Part shown: positions 667 through 63,546 of the stretch, piece by piece
How the letters are laid out: each line of letters begins with the position of its first letter
Position numbering within the stretch: the first letter of the stretch is position 1
IMG/VR virus record: IMGVR_UViG_3300045988_159706
Strand: one strand, 5' to 3'
Length of the DNA stretch: 64,000 nt
Source: a virus
Made by a program: the position numbers and the translations under genes
Notes under the pieces: generated by a model
What the model was told of the DNA's origin: nothing
Database searches by the model: none
The model's input: the letters and a program-made list of their open reading frames with translations, nothing else

Positions 667-1272
667 TTAGGTAAGGGAATATTCTTGGGTTTCAATGGAT
701 CCATCTTTGATTGATTTTAATTTATTAATTTCTTTCATAGCTCATTGAAGTTGTTTTTTGAGCTGTTCAATGTCTTCAGTATTCTTTTCTACTTTCTCAT
801 TTACATAAAGAACAGCTTGACAAACTTTAGCTAAATCTATAGCTCCTACAGTTCTTTGTAATCCAGTAGTTTCATCTCTTCTATAGGAAGTAAGTTCTGT
901 AAGTATTCCTTCATCTCTCATTTCTTTATTTCTTCGTCTAATTGTTCTTACAGATGTATGCATAGAATCTGCAAGCTCTTCTTGAGTTTTCATAGTATAT
1001 GCAAATCCTGTAGCAGGGTCCTTGTAAGAATTGGCTAAAACTCCCATTACATGTCCTTTTAAATCGGGAGATCAGTCCTTATCCAAGAATTCAAATGTAT
1101 ATCGTTCAAAATCTTCTTCAAGTTTTGTAAATTTATACACATTTGGCATTCTGGGTTTTCGAATTACCGTAAATGCACCTTCTCTTTCTAAAGCTAAAAT
1201 TGCTTTACGAATAGTGTTTAAAGCACATCCAGTTTCTTTTTTGATTGTATCTAAGGATGGAAATGCTTCCAT
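667..1272 (-). CDS. DNA-binding protein with two HTH-like segments (201 aa if TGA is sense)
   Basis: Track ORFs 1072-1272 and 742-1047 share one frame; separated by TGA (1072-1074), then continue through a second TGA (742-744) to TAA (667-669); HTH-like LDTIKKETGCALNTIRKAILALE and ELADSMHTSVRTIRRRNKEM. Confidence 0.65.
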
Positions 1273-1451
1273 TGTGTCTTTATTTATATGACGGCGAATG
1301 TGAGCATAAATATATCAGTCTTTAGAAGATAAGTTCCATTTAGATGGGTGTGGAACTTGCACATGTTGATTTTTTGTATATTCCATATATTATATAGTAT
1401 AAGTTTGCTATCACAAAGGTATATATTTTGTCCATCATTTCCAAATCGATA

Positions 1452-1635
1452 AGGTCAAAATTTATACTAGAGGACAGATTTGATAGGTGACAGGCCAGAT
1501 TTGAACTAGGGGAGGCGGCCAAATTTGAACGTCAACAGGCCAGATTTGGTACACTAACTATATAACCAACTAAACCCACGTAACTATATAATAGCGACCA
1601 CCTTGAGGTGGATCGCCGAGATGCCCAATTTGGGT
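1452..1635. promoter_or_regulatory. iteron-like direct repeats in a divergent intergenic region
   Basis: GGCCAGATTTGAAC (1493-1506), GGCCAAATTTGAAC (1517-1530), GGCCAGATTTGGTAC (1538-1552), GGACAGATTTGA (1472-1483), GCCCAATTTGGG (1623-1634); spacing about 21-24 nt. Confidence 0.5.
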
Positions 1636-1657
1636 TTTCGACCTCAAACTTGAAAAT

Positions 1658-1858
1658 ATGTCAGAGTATTCTGCAACAAATATAACACAATCAGTACTTC
1701 CTAGTGATGATAAAAAGTATCCACTTAAAGAGAATTCTACTATAAATTGGAATAGGAAGATGTTAATGGAATATTTTGAGGGTGTGAAGAAGATGAAAGG
1801 TGCTAGAGGGGACAGTCAAATCCTCCCTTCCTCTCCAGAAACTTTCTCTCTTTCTTAA
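1658..1858 (+). CDS. hypothetical protein
   Basis: ORF track; ATG start, TAA stop. Confidence 0.35.
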   Translation: MSEYSATNITQSVLPSDDKKYPLKENSTINWNRKMLMEYFEGVKKMKGARGDSQILPSSPETFSLS

Positions 1859-59963: not shown

Positions 59964-59968
59964 TAAAA

Positions 59969-60877
59969 ATGAAAGATTGGAAAGCATGGGGAATTAAGAA
60001 AAGAGTATTCCCAGATAAGAATTATAATGCAATTTGGCACGATTTAAAAACTGTTCGATTAGGTTCTGGGCAAGCTAAAGAATTAGATTATCCAGAATTC
60101 TACGATGTTGGAATTAATACTCTTTGTAATCTAGGATGCCCATTTTGTTATGTTGGAGCTACATCTAAAGGAGTAAATCATGATCATATATGTGAAAAGG
60201 CTAAATTTTTCTTTGGCAGCATGACTGAGAATGAGAAACCTTTTCAGATTGCAATTGGTTCTACAGGAGAACCTACAATTCATCCTGAGTTTTGTGAGTT
60301 TCTTAAAACAATATATAGTTTGGGGATCGTTCCTAACTATACAACTAATGGAATCTCAATAGCCAAATATGATGGTAATGCAGAAGAAATTTTAGAAGCT
60401 ACTTCCAAATATGTAGGAGGAGTTGCTGTTTCAGCAAATACATGGAATCCAGAAATAGATTCTGCTTGGAGAAGTGCTATAGTACTTCTGCATAAATTCG
60501 GGAACACTAATATCAATATTCATTATATAATTAATGATAAAAAGTCTGTTGATGACTTTATTAAAATTTATAATCAATATAAAGATATTGTTCTATACTT
60601 TGTACTACTTCCTTTGATGCCTTCTGGTCGGTCATCAAATAAATACTCGCAAGAAGCATTTGAATACCTTCTTGAACAAGATATAGACTTTAAACAAATT
60701 GCATTTGGAGCACATTTCTATGACTCTTTATGTAATCAAAATAAGTTAGGATGCTATTTATATCCTCCTGAAAGTCTATCTAAAAACCTTATTTTAGGAG
60801 AGAAGATTATGGTTACTCCAAGTTCCTTTAATCTTACTCCTATTAAGGAAATTAATTTCAGTTATGAAAACTTGTAA
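59969..60877 (+). CDS. radical SAM enzyme
   Basis: CNLGCPFCY (CxxxCxxC) and GSTGEPT motifs. Confidence 0.8.
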   Translation: MKDWKAWGIKKRVFPDKNYNAIWHDLKTVRLGSGQAKELDYPEFYDVGINTLCNLGCPFCYVGATSKGVNHDHICEKAKFFFGSMTENEKPFQIAIGSTGEPTIHPEFCEFLKTIYSLGIVPNYTTNGISIAKYDGNAEEILEATSKYVGGVAVSANTWNPEIDSAWRSAIVLLHKFGNTNINIHYIINDKKSVDDFIKIYNQYKDIVLYFVLLPLMPSGRSSNKYSQEAFEYLLEQDIDFKQIAFGAHFYDSLCNQNKLGCYLYPPESLSKNLILGEKIMVTPSSFNLTPIKEINFSYENL

Positions 60878-61055
60878 AGTAATTTTTAGAGATGAAACTT
60901 TAGCACAAGACAGTATCGTGGATTGTTGGTTAAACGATGTTGGAGATTTAGAGTTTAAATTGTACTTTGATCCTCCAGTAACAGAAACTTCTGACCTTGG
61001 TTCATTAGCTGGACAGTTATGCTATAGTTTCTGTAAAGCTTTAAAGGATGAATAA
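60864..61055 (+). CDS. small hypothetical protein
   Basis: ORF track. Confidence 0.45.
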   Translation: MKTCKVIFRDETLAQDSIVDCWLNDVGDLEFKLYFDPPVTETSDLGSLAGQLCYSFCKALKDE

Positions 61056-62145
61056 AATCATATTGTTAAATGCAATTGTTGGAAGTCAGGCGTATGGAAC
61101 AAATACGCCTGACTCTGACATTGATACAAAGGGAGTATATCTTCAGGATCCTATGGAAGTCTTAGGGATGGAGTATAAGGAACAGATTAACCTGGATAAG
61201 GATGCCTGCTTATATGAAGTTAGAAGATTTTTGCAACTACTTTGTAGTGGAAATCCTACAATGTTGGAACTTTTGTATATTCCTGAAGATTGTATTCTAG
61301 AAAAGCACCCTTTGTGGGATATTATATCGAAACATAGAAGTGCATTTCTAACTAAACAATGCTACTTTAGTTTTGCTGGTTATGCATATCAACAAGTAGA
61401 AAAGGCTAAAGGGCTAAATAAGAAAATGAATTGGGAGGCTGATAAAGTAAAAAGAAAAAGGCCAATTGATTTTCTAAAAGTTATTGACAACTGTAAAACA
61501 TATCCTCTTGTTGAATGGTTAAAGCGTAATCAGATGCATGAGGATTGCTGTGGACTTGCTAAAGTCAATGATTCAGAGAATCTTTATGCTTTGTGGTATG
61601 ATGACATTAAAGAAATGTCTAAGACCAAAGACTTGTCTAATCCTAGATATAAAGATTGGAAAGATTTTGGATATAAAGGAGTTTGTAATGATGTTGAATT
61701 ACTACTTTCAGAGATTCCAGAATGGCAAATTCCTATGTGTAGGTGTAACCTTTACTACAATAGGAATGGTTGGGGAGAACATTGTAAAGACTATAATTCC
61801 TACCAAACTTGGCTGAAAGAAAGAAACACACAAAGATATGTAGATATTCAAAATCATGGACAAAAGATCGATGGCAAAAATATGTTACATTGTATAAGAT
61901 TATTACAATGTGCTAATGATATCTTAGATCTTAAAACTATTAATGTTAGAGTTAAGAACCCTGAATATTTACTATCTATTAGACATGGAAAAGTATCCTT
62001 AGAAGAATTACTTGAATCAGCAAGAAATCAAATTAAAGGGTTAAAGCAAAAATTTGAAGACAGTGATTTACCACATTCAGTAGATCCAGATTTAGTCAAA
62101 TCAATATTGAATGAAATAAGAAAAGAATCATTAAATTTGTTTTAA
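61048..62145 (+). CDS. Pol-beta-superfamily nucleotidyltransferase (RlaP-like)
   Basis: N-terminal GSQAYGTNTPDSDIDTKGVY. Confidence 0.65.
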   Translation: MNKIILLNAIVGSQAYGTNTPDSDIDTKGVYLQDPMEVLGMEYKEQINLDKDACLYEVRRFLQLLCSGNPTMLELLYIPEDCILEKHPLWDIISKHRSAFLTKQCYFSFAGYAYQQVEKAKGLNKKMNWEADKVKRKRPIDFLKVIDNCKTYPLVEWLKRNQMHEDCCGLAKVNDSENLYALWYDDIKEMSKTKDLSNPRYKDWKDFGYKGVCNDVELLLSEIPEWQIPMCRCNLYYNRNGWGEHCKDYNSYQTWLKERNTQRYVDIQNHGQKIDGKNMLHCIRLLQCANDILDLKTINVRVKNPEYLLSIRHGKVSLEELLESARNQIKGLKQKFEDSDLPHSVDPDLVKSILNEIRKESLNLF

Positions 62146-63546
62146 ATGAAATCGGAATTTATTACATTACAATTACTCTCAGAGAGTTTTGAGGATAAAT
62201 TGGCATGACTAGTTGCAAATAATGAAGATAAAGTGTCTAAGTATCTTCTGGAAGCTAATCAATTAATTAAAATTTATACTAAGACAAAAGCAGAGAACTC
62301 TGAAAGTTTGTTTCCAATTCCCGATACTGTTTTAGAAGGGTTTATAAATGCAATTAAGGAAAAATTGTCAGACTATGGACGACAACTAACTCTTAAAACT
62401 GATGCTTTCAAAGTTTCATTTCTTCCTAAAGGCTGTACTCCTGAATATACTAAAAGTGGTAGATGGGCGAAAAAGAATAGACAATCAGGAAAGCCTGGTA
62501 AAATTATACAAAAAGTAATTGGAACTGGCGTCTTTTCTAACTCTGATTATGAAAAATTTGTATATGCTCTTAAAGCACTTTGGTCTTATGGTGGGTATGA
62601 AATTAAATTGGTAGAAGGAGAAGATATTAGATACTGGTATGATTCGGAAAATTATTATGCCATTACTAATACTTTGGGTAATTCATGTATGTCTCATAAA
62701 GAATGTAGTGGTTATTTTGATCTCTATTGTACACAACCAGAGTGTCGAATGCTGGTTGCATTAAAGGAGGACAAATTAGCAGCGAGAGCTTTAGTATGGA
62801 CCATTGGGGATAAAACCTTTATGGACCGTGTTTATTATATAGAGGATTCTTTATATAATATCTTTGTTAACTATGCTAAAGAAAATAAATGGTATATCCG
62901 AGAGAGTAATTGCCTTCTTAGTGATGGTGACAATCAAGTATTTTTATCTCCAAAGGATAACTATACTGAACCAGTAACTGAACGCTTTGTTTTGAACTTA
63001 GTTAAGATTTATCCTAAATGGCCTTATATTGATAGTTTTAGATATTTAGATCTTGAGAATAAGGTCTTAACAACATATCGAAGATGTAATTCCTACACAT
63101 GCTCGTTTACAGATGGAAATTACGAAGATTCAGAGGATTGGGACGAAGACTATCAATGTGAGAATTGTGGGTGCCAATATAGTAACGATGATGAGTTAGT
63201 GTATTCAGAATACTTTGATACATTAGGATGTACTTCTTGTATGTCATGGTCAGAAATTATGCAAGATTGGATTCCAGACAGCGAAGTTGTCTACGTTAAA
63301 ATTGATGACGCATGCCACAATGGTGAAGTTTGTTGTAGTCAGTATCTAGCATCGCATCCAGAAAAATATGTCTATATTGAAGGTTCCTGGTACTCAACAG
63401 AATTCAAAAGGATTTGTAAAAATCAGGATGGGGATTGGATAGTTATACATCTGGATGAAATATCCACTTCACCAGATATGTTTAGTGTGACTCCGTCTAT
63501 TTCTGCAGCATCTGGAAACTATATTATTGACCCTAGAACATATTAA
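62146..63546 (+). CDS. hypothetical Cys-rich protein (466 aa, one in-frame TGA), paralog of 45583-46959
   Basis: ATG 62146 in frame with track ORF 62233-63546; TGA at 62206. Confidence 0.6.

Follow-up and report, generated by a model that had tools for sequence, protein, structure and literature searches.

We analysed a 64-kb stretch of DNA from the IMG/VR virus record IMGVR_UViG_3300045988_159706 (64,000 nucleotides; the whole stretch is called the window below), part of a phage genome in which about 20 genes carry in-frame TGA codons. In all likelihood this phage uses genetic code 4, in which UGA encodes tryptophan (Trp) and UAA and UAG terminate translation, probably by way of a dedicated tRNA(UCA) in a presumed standard-code host. 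TGA-to-Trp recoding in large gut phages is already established (10.1101/2021.08.26.457843), and the remaining novelty lies mostly in an aberrant five-armed tRNA(UCA), its possible origin by duplication and the traffic of homing endonucleases at its locus. An earlier note made from the sequence alone had proposed that TGA is a sense codon here; the candidate decoder tRNA at 41494-41584, the clustering of TGA by gene class and the prior documentation of such recoding in gut phages go beyond that note.

TGA codons within genes and termination at TAA and TAG

A crude comparison of open reading frame (ORF) coverage under different codes was uninformative, since dropping TAA as a stop raises coverage even more in AT-rich DNA. 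We instead used a curated set of 73 + strand genes in which only TAA and TAG were taken as stops, and compared codons with those of 84 loci taken from related IMG/VR contigs. The 73 genes comprise 16,121 codons; with TGA as a stop, their longest usable fragments hold 14,352. Reading TGA as a stop, as translation table 11 does, costs more than five codons in 20 of the 73 genes and likewise in one - strand gene, and the XPB-like helicase would split into seven pieces, so the comparison of tables 4 and 11 suggested in the earlier note comes out in favour of table 4. Stop usage in the curated set is 61 TAA and 13 TAG, with no obligatory TGA. Some 40 in-frame TGAs are spread over about 20 of the curated genes. 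TGA makes up 0.27% of codons in frame, compared with 1.6% and 5.4% in the other two frames, and is thus strongly avoided in frame yet not excluded.

Protein domains continue across these codons. When TGA is masked as X, the Pfam RNase_H domain of the RNase HI gene spans residues 6-135 over X98 and X114, and DnaB_C spans residues 21-307 over X221 in the DnaB-like helicase; the ResIII/DEAD/Helicase_C, Toprim_2 and HNH families likewise extend across masked positions, and in the Endonuclease VII gene both TGAs (codons 30 and 57) precede the domain (77-158). In related contigs, 17-39 aligned loci have TGA at the same places, which excludes sequencing error and recent pseudogenization. At stop sites, TAA and TAG interchange among relatives in at least nine genes and never with TGA, and the earlier statement that TAA and TAG still terminate is upheld.

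Of 19 loci that had been listed as intact only when TGA is read through, 17 are clearly right: 667-1272 (-), 22280, 28578, 29533, 37128, 41601, 42777, 47824, 50059 (the ORF at 50026-50376), 50379, 52173, 53459, 54058, 55154, 57117, 58114 and 62146. The other two are uncertain. The gene at 35517 may really end with the TGA at 35676, a TAG 14 codons further on (35718) serving as backstop; at 40915, the codon in question is hypervariable among relatives. This codon (40981-40983, in gene 40915-41481) reads TGA in the window; relatives with identical flanks have TGG, TAG, TAT or CAG there, and the TAG variants (L029 and L031) would require amber read-through or a downstream start. A TGA also lies two to three codons before TAA in three genes (19805, 44709 and 52162), those at 19805 and 44709 forming ATGA overlaps with the start of the next gene. 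These three look like former TGA stops with TAA backstops, and together with 35676 they may be residual or early-phase terminators. TGAs at 48713, 48746 and 49314, which the earlier list did not include, lie upstream of probable true starts.

TGA occupies tryptophan positions

We compared in-frame sites with well-aligned flanks at which either the window or a relative has TGA and the other has another codon. The partner of TGA is TGG at 20 of the 27 variable sites. Other partners occur at seven sites, in ten site-by-codon combinations (CGA and TAT twice each; ACA, TTA, AGA, GGA, TAG and CAG once each). In the genes at 42-63.5 kb, TGA and TGG interchange at 13.5% of Trp-type sites, which falls between the rate for the non-synonymous pair ATA/ATG (5.6%) and those for synonymous A/G pairs (22-36%). 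Change from TGA/TGG sites to any other codon, at 7.3%, is the lowest among the codon pairs compared, as expected for Trp.

This turnover is distributed over many genes. TGA and TGG exchange among relatives at 52362, 52641, 52854 and 53265 in the helicase gene, at 54079 and 55009 in the DnaB-like gene and at 58011 and 57690 in the primase-like gene. In the gene at 50379, some relatives have TGG for codon 50874, and the 62%-identical L042 has it for 50451; in the gene at 53459, codon 53978 is TGG in all aligned relatives (20 in one comparison, 36 in another); and in the ATPase gene at 55154, codon 55538 is TGG in 14 of 20 relatives. The HNH gene at 22280 shows the reverse, with TGG 22409 replaced by TGA in relatives, and its stop alternates between TAG and TAA. 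For codon 67 of the - strand gene 667-1272 the window has TGA and L073 and L074 have TGG, while both TGAs of this gene are kept in orthologues of 63% identity. TGA is also kept in the RNase HI gene of 20 relatives and of the 56%-identical L042. Overall, of the nine TGA positions of the window that L042 (52-67% protein identity) covers in four shared genes, seven are TGA or TGG in L042 and the other two are ATA and TAT.

Distant homologues point to the same residue. The helicase, with X at its six TGAs, was searched against 1.84 billion cluster representatives, and the best 149 matches (29-49% identical) were aligned. The aligned residue is W in 104 of 115 homologues at X14 and in 124 of 127 at X64, which also aligns with W of XPBII. 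At X157 (52641, within KNG-x-LSPF), a position described in the earlier note as usually aromatic, it is W in 107 of 138, Y in 20 and F in 8. At three of the six TGA positions, 78-98% of homologues thus have W, against a background W frequency of 1.35%; X90 is mixed, with many aromatic residues. In RNase HI, the claim that both 48115 and 48163 fall at conserved Trp holds for the first, X98, which is the W of DLW in all four displayed PDB alignments; the second, X114, is W only in two E. coli-type sequences and F or K in the others, and X5 is Y or F. Positions 48115, 48163 and 52641 had been quoted exactly. Of the homologue alignments that had been proposed as a check, those of the helicase and RNase HI return Trp at some of the TGA positions and that of the DnaB-like helicase returns V or I. 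Taken together, the codon turnover, the helicase positions and the DLW motif bear out the view that TGA most likely means Trp, and from these comparisons we consider it very probable indeed that TGA is translated as Trp.

TGA use differs among gene classes

TGA accounts for about 18% of Trp codons (40-43 TGA and 191 TGG), whereas in the comparable pairs for Lys, Glu, Gln, Leu and Arg 60-77% of codons end in A. Its distribution is strongly clustered among genes (permutation p<5e-5; Table 1): it is absent from a long block of transporter, ion-channel and tRNA genes, nearly as frequent as TGG in the replication module and almost the sole Trp codon of the HNH/EndoVII genes. At 22-37 kb, the six TGAs are confined to HNH/EndoVII genes and codon 4 of gene 28578. 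The pattern continues in relatives beyond the window. To the left, on the opposite strand, TGA equals or exceeds TGG in several lysis-type genes of L073, among them a 752-residue glucosaminidase-domain protein (7 TGA, 6 TGG), an M15 peptidase and several small proteins. To the right, in L067, a probable endonuclease has four TGA and no TGG, and TGAs are few in ribonucleotide reductase, dUTPase and a RecD-like helicase. This unevenness is indirect support for a standard-code host.

A candidate opal-decoding tRNA and its locus

The likely decoder of TGA, judged from sequence features, is a 91-nt tRNA(UCA) that sits between genes 40915-41481 and 41601-42185, which lie 119 nt apart, and has 61.5% GC in surroundings of 32% GC. 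It has a 7-bp acceptor stem, a 5-bp T stem, a short D arm, an anticodon stem of 5-6 bp and a 25-nt extra arm, and this five-arm cloverleaf is the unconstrained minimum-energy fold. The anticodon loop CUUCAAA is canonical (U33, UCA, A37), the T loop is AUCGUUA and the discriminator is G73. Nine relatives share the tRNA at 100% identity while their flanking coding DNA is only 84-94% identical, and in L030 and L032 it differs by exactly one compensatory change, from G-C to A-U, in the anticodon stem. Its acceptor end (G1.U72, C2-G71, G73) is shared, among the 26 tRNAs reported by ARAGORN, only with the ordinary tRNA-Trp(CCA) of the phage; the phage Ser tRNAs have G1-C72, G2-C71 and G73, and the Leu tRNAs have A73.

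Relatives carry other versions of the tRNA at this locus. L042 has a fully canonical 72-nt tRNA(UCA) that scores 53 bits in Rfam. In L022, L023 and L035-L039, a Trp-like tRNA(UCA) is split between U34 and C35 by an insert of 605-629 nt, and an insert of this kind interrupts the window-type tRNA of L026 at the same point. E. coli tRNA-Trp has A1-U72 and G73, and this combination is found in four of the five tRNA(UCA) loci of L035-L039. The inserts encode a PD-(D/E)XK endonuclease (PF11645, E=1e-14) or an HNH endonuclease, and in-frame TGA occurs in every one of these ORFs; the TGA of the L039 intron ORF lies at the same motif position as one in gene 37128. In the window, by contrast, the locus has a free-standing HNH gene (41601) directly downstream of the tRNA; its TGAs are kept in 11-12 relatives, and the gene is absent where relatives carry the intron-bearing tRNA allele. 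Each insert is preceded by U and ends in G, like group I introns, and these boundaries together with the PF11645 endonuclease are suggestive of a group I intron. The Rfam group I model (RF00028) matched neither the whole insert (E≤1) nor its conserved 3' 246 nt (E≤10), which leaves the class of the insert unproven. Elsewhere in these relatives, a metallophosphatase gene of L039, homologous to 49269-50072 of the window, has an insertion of about 1 kb (17427-18432) with a bona fide group I intron (RF00028, 65 bits), and a ferritin-like gene of L042 has a 1.1-kb insertion (14155-15243); the window has neither insertion.

In the L022/L039 allele, two hairpins stand next to each other, GCGGU-CUUCAAA-ACCGU and GGGGU/GGAGU-CUCCAAA-ACUCC, with UCA in the first and CCA in the second, and the second has the 12-mer GGUCUCCAAAAC in common with the anticodon arm of the phage tRNA-Trp(CCA). 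We tentatively suggest that the decoder may be a new structural type of tRNA-Trp, a five-armed form whose UCA arm would have arisen by tandem duplication of the Trp anticodon arm, with the second hairpin decayed to the 25-nt extra arm in the window, and with intron-borne ORFs that would themselves be UGA-dependent. As those ORFs need UGA suppression, the mobile elements would be translated only once the tRNA that they interrupt is spliced and working.

Proposed mechanism and alternatives

In the mechanism that we propose, the host would use the standard code and the phage would supply tRNA(UCA), charged by a tryptophanyl-tRNA synthetase (TrpRS). Charging with Trp is suggested by an acceptor end that copies that of the phage tRNA-Trp and by the allelic versions in relatives, which are plainly Trp-like. 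The charged tRNA would outcompete release factor 2 (RF2) at UGA. Genes free of UGA would be translatable from the start of infection and UGA genes would give full-length protein only after the suppressor has accumulated, and through that dependence recoding would double as a timing or insulation device. We regard a mechanism based on tRNA(UCA) as reasonably probable.

Several observations weigh against these conclusions. The residue aligned to helicase X25 is mostly Ala, X204 is variable and X221 of the DnaB-like helicase aligns with V or I of a hydrophobic strand in PDB DnaB; such residues are expected at variable sites but give no positive support for Trp. Some database homologues were perhaps themselves translated with code 4, which would slightly inflate the W counts; the codon-level and PDB evidence is independent of them. 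The base at +4 is A after 50% of TGA and 30% of TGG codons, a weak bias (p=0.03). As to the tRNA, neither the Rfam tRNA model nor the tRNA-Sec (selenocysteine) model matched 41400-41680 even at E≤10, so that the case for a tRNA rests on ARAGORN, conservation and covariation, and the fold is not more stable than those of shuffled sequences (z = -1.0). The long extra arm is a class II feature (Ser, Leu, Tyr and Sec), and the argument for Trp charging accordingly comes entirely from the acceptor end and codon evolution. The replication genes carry TGA, which means that any switch would have to precede replication. Finally, Pfam searches of the window found no code-change genes for release factor 1 (RF1) or TrpRS; beyond the window, only about 8.5 kb on the left and about 10 kb on the right were sampled in relatives.

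The features that set the 91-nt RNA apart bear on the most serious alternative, that UGA is read near-cognately by tRNA-Trp(CCA), either that of the phage (18918-18990) or that of the host, perhaps with a phage factor that inhibits RF2, and that 41494-41584 has another role or is the remnant of a homing-endonuclease target. tRNA-Trp(CCA) is known to read UGA at a low level, as in the Hirsh suppressor. The aberrant D arm and T loop and the failure in the Rfam tRNA model agree with this reading, as does the finding of Borges et al. that suppressor tRNAs occur in only 35% of code-4 phages (10.1101/2021.08.26.457843). Yet the anticodon loop is canonical, the stem shows a compensatory change, the sequence is perfectly conserved amid diverged flanks, and relatives keep tRNA(UCA) at the locus in three forms, one of them fully canonical. 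We consider near-cognate decoding rather unlikely.

Codon usage speaks to a second possibility, in which TGA=Trp merely mirrors the code of a Mycoplasmatota-like host and involves neither a suppression system nor any regulatory meaning. The assignment itself would fit, but AT-rich code-4 organisms typically prefer TGA, and here it is a small minority of Trp codons against a clear A-ending preference in comparable pairs and is missing from whole gene blocks (none of 41 Trp codons at 4-22 kb). The phage moreover has its own strongly conserved tRNA(UCA), and related phage groups are predicted to infect standard-code Bacteroidales or Lachnospiraceae (PMC12386605; 10.1101/2021.08.26.457843). A code-4 host thus seems very unlikely.

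A different amino acid, either Gly as in code 25 of phages of Gracilibacteria/Absconditabacteria or Ser or Leu inserted by the long-armed tRNA(UCA), is scarcely credible. The extra arm and G73 do resemble those of bacterial tRNA-Ser, and GGA replaces TGA at one site (41089). Against the 20 sites with TGG, however, GGA and TTA are partners at one site each and TCA at none; W predominates at the three helicase positions; and the acceptor pairs differ from those of the phage Ser tRNAs, while the Leu tRNAs have a different discriminator. Homologues that placed TGA at Gly or Ser positions would have spoken against Trp, and Gly appears at a single TGA position only, as a minority residue (10 of 116 at helicase X25). 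Selenocysteine, to which the ARAGORN label, the 6-bp anticodon stem and the long extra arm might point, is effectively refuted, as is a reading of the split ORFs as pseudogene fragments or assembly errors. Some 40 TGAs are spread over about 20 unrelated genes and occupy positions of Trp rather than Cys; the acceptor/T arrangement of the tRNA is 7/5 instead of 8/5, and the tRNA has no Rfam tRNA-Sec match; and the TGAs are found again in 20-39 loci of related contigs, with synonymous-type turnover to TGG, in proteins whose 90% clusters span hundreds of contigs.

Comparison with known recoding systems

In Mycoplasma, Spiroplasma and mitochondrial code 4, UGA is likewise assigned to Trp, through a tRNA-Trp whose anticodon is UCA. 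Reassignment in those cases extends to the whole genome, and Trp is encoded preferentially by TGA; in the window TGA is a minority codon specific to gene classes, in a virus probably of a standard-code host. For the split loci, a parallel exists in bacterial group I introns that interrupt tRNA anticodon loops and encode PD-(D/E)XK homing endonucleases, as in cyanobacterial tRNA-Leu(UAA) and tRNA-fMet/I-Ssp6803I. Like these, the tRNA(UCA) of relatives, though not that of the window, is cut in the anticodon loop, after U34, by an endonuclease-coding insert; it differs in that the Rfam group I model finds no match, the host gene is an opal suppressor and the ORFs contain in-frame TGA.

The closest precedent for the recoding is the set of code-4 gut phages of Borges et al., which use TGA in part of their genes, with lysis, structural and homing-endonuclease genes enriched, and carry phage suppressor tRNAs (10.1101/2021.08.26.457843). 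The window agrees with these phages (Jade and Agate clades) in large genome size, TGA=Trp in a subset of genes, TAA and TAG stops, preferential recoding of homing-endonuclease and lysis genes, a putative phage TGA suppressor tRNA and a presumed standard-code host. It departs from them in that no RF1/TrpRS module is seen within 64 kb and the suppressor tRNA is structurally aberrant. Its replication module is also heavily recoded, unlike those of the Agate and crAss examples, which keep the standard code; the same authors found the recoding of replication genes to be variable, and predicted that undetected suppressor tRNAs are non-canonical (10.1101/2021.08.26.457843). The candidate tRNA of the window would be a non-canonical suppressor of the kind that they predicted. 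Protein-level validation of phage recoding exists for a TAG-to-Gln case (PMC9523058).

Zeta crAss-like phages ('Echekviridae'; for example Lera and ct1yV3), a group first described by Yutin et al. in 2021, have genomes of about 176-180 kb with 25-26 tRNAs in a block (PMC12386605). They match the window in having both SUP-TCA and SUP-CTA tRNAs with opal suppression only and TAG as a terminator, in several homing endonucleases and introns, in replication and virion genes on opposite strands and in a GC content of about 32-35% (PMC12386605). Genome size, the tRNA block, the dual suppressor tRNAs and one 'Crassvirales sp.' label are circumstantial evidence that only suggests membership in this group; the genes for TerL, the major capsid protein and the giant RNA polymerase lie outside the window. 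We rejected identity with Lera, as the gene content differs and there was no nucleotide match in the phage collection; the supplementary ORF table for Lera has no 'adenylosuccinate', 'flotillin' or 'nicotinamide' entries (PMC12386605).

In practical terms, the window and its relatives of about 178 kb need annotation with table 4, since table 11 breaks roughly one gene in four, those for the helicase, primase, DnaB and RNase H included. The lineage is abundant, its 90% protein clusters occurring on hundreds of metagenomic contigs. Use of TGA follows gene class in an all-or-none manner: metabolic and tRNA genes have none, replication genes about 50% and homing endonucleases nearly 100%. A recoded replication module constrains models in which recoding merely delays late and lysis genes. 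A probable suppressor tRNA of a shape that Rfam misses also bears on the report of suppressors in just 35-40% or so of recoded phages.

Table 1. Coordinates of the genes and tRNAs discussed, with TGA and TGG counts by region
Feature	Position (strand)	Details
Candidate opal-decoding tRNA(UCA)	41494-41584 (+)	91 nt; ARAGORN label 'tRNA-SeC(tca)'
Ordinary tRNA-Trp(CCA)	18918-18990 (+)	ARAGORN and Rfam, 59 bits
tRNA(CUA), amber-suppressor-like	20950-21030 (+)	ARAGORN and Rfam, 40 bits; kept in 13 relatives
Split tRNA(UCA) loci in relatives	L022 9285-9990; L026 8706-9396; L039 9261-9990	
HTH-domain gene	667-1272 (-)	2 TGA; Pfam HTH_36
HNH endonuclease	22280-23014 (+)	3 TGA, 1 TGG; stop TAG; Pfam DUF2116/HNH_3
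Endonuclease VII-type gene	29533-30021 (+)	TGA 29620, 29701; Pfam Endonuclease_7, E=3e-25; stop TAG or TAA in relatives
HNH/EndoVII-like endonuclease	37128-37769 (+)	TGA 37140, 37596; paralogue of 22280
HTH-HNH endonuclease	41601-42185 (+)	3 TGA, 0 TGG; Pfam HTH_23/HNH_4
RNase HI	47824-48267 (+)	TGA 47836, 48115, 48163; Pfam RNase_H, E=7e-25, across TGAs
Small gene	50026-50376 (+)	TGA 50185, 50263; no TGG; both TGAs kept in 20 relatives and in 57%-identical L042
Conserved gene, function not assigned	50379-51209 (+)	TGA 50451, 50601, 50874; stop TAG
XPB/Rad25-like SF2 helicase	52173-53393 (+)	TGA 52212, 52245, 52362, 52440, 52641, 52782; Pfam ResIII/DEAD/Helicase_C
Gene	53459-54058 (+)	TGA 53528, 53978
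DnaB-like helicase	54058-55152 (+)	TGA 54718; Pfam DnaB_C
AAA_24 ATPase gene	55154-55891 (+)	TGA 55538; Pfam AAA_24
Toprim primase-like gene	57117-58160 (+)	TGA 57534, 57738, 58011; Pfam Toprim_2
PD-(D/E)XK-like gene	58114-58509 (+)	TGA 58408; stop TAG; weak Pfam PDDEXK_15; TGA kept in 19 relatives
Region	4-22 kb	0 TGA, 41 TGG
TGA-free block	4272-21958 (+)	Transporter, ion channel, unknown genes, most of tRNA array; 0 TGA, 41 TGG
Region	22-37 kb	6 TGA, 53 TGG
Region	37-47.8 kb	8 TGA, 35 TGG
Replication module	47.8-58.6 kb	25 TGA, 28 TGG
Region	58.5-63.6 kb	1 TGA, 34 TGG
Four HNH/EndoVII genes		10 TGA, 1 TGG
Auxiliary genes	8825-12800 and 24416-36771	Ion channel, complete ABC transporter fused to OmpA-like domain, SPFH/flotillin, NADAR, nicotinamidase, NAMPT, NAD synthase, adenylosuccinate synthetase, IMPDH/GMP-reductase-like; no in-frame TGA

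The phage and other features of the window

The window is phage-like, with 34.7% GC, nearly all genes from about 4 kb onward on the + strand and a positive GC skew throughout, and is part of a virulent-type phage, about 178 kb in size (about 176-180 kb), of the human microbiome. Third-party-annotated 'Caudoviricetes sp.' proteins in NCBI (DAQ87799.1 and others) are exact copies of window proteins. Members of its 90% protein clusters come mostly from contigs of 170-180 kb, one of them carrying the NCBI label 'Crassvirales sp.', and many IMG/VR relatives are 87-99% identical in nucleotide sequence on contigs up to 178 kb. Megablast of 19 kb of the window against the GenBank phage collection gave no match, and every tblastn match of the helicase was below 40% identity, so that no annotated close relative could be used. 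By Pfam, the block at 4-36 kb holds auxiliary metabolic and membrane genes, homing-endonuclease genes are dispersed across the window, and the replication module comprises RNase HI, the XPB-like helicase, DnaB, the AAA_24 ATPase and the Toprim primase.

ARAGORN reported 26 tRNA genes and Rfam two more (4218-4291, and 22173-22244, a Gly-UCC). One of the former is the amber-suppressor-like tRNA(CUA), whose anticodon stem is poorly paired. We rejected reassignment of TAG by this tRNA because TAG alternates with TAA at many stops; in most of the 13 genes ending in TAG the next gene begins within about 30 nt or overlaps, and gene 28578 ends in a tandem TAG-TAG (28878-28883). Isolated in-frame TAGs do occur in single relatives. 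Lera likewise has an 'unused' amber suppressor tRNA (PMC12386605).

Long extra arms are found in four tRNAs, namely Lys(UUU) (21129-21216, 88 nt), Thr(UGU) (23240-23322, 83 nt), CUA (81 nt) and UCA (91 nt). Lys and Thr are normally class I, and three of the four still score 40-60 bits in the Rfam tRNA model. Their repeated occurrence suggests that insertion of extra arms into tRNAs is a habit of this lineage. A further tRNA-like gene at 6542-6615 (+) scores 49 bits in Rfam and is given a 2-base anticodon by ARAGORN; its anticodon loop (CTACT-CTGAGG-AGTAG) is 6 nt long, or 8 nt with the closing pair open.

Genes associated with RNA repair occur at 39077-39409 and 61048-62145 (cREC_REC, a cyclic-phosphate processing receiver, and an RlaP nucleotidyltransferase), and together with the 28 tRNAs they hint at a defence against host tRNA-cleaving systems. 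A pistol self-cleaving ribozyme (RF02679), which scores 70.3 bits where the gathering score is 34.5, lies at 3204-3274 (+), near the strand-switch region and upstream of tRNA-Glu(UUC).

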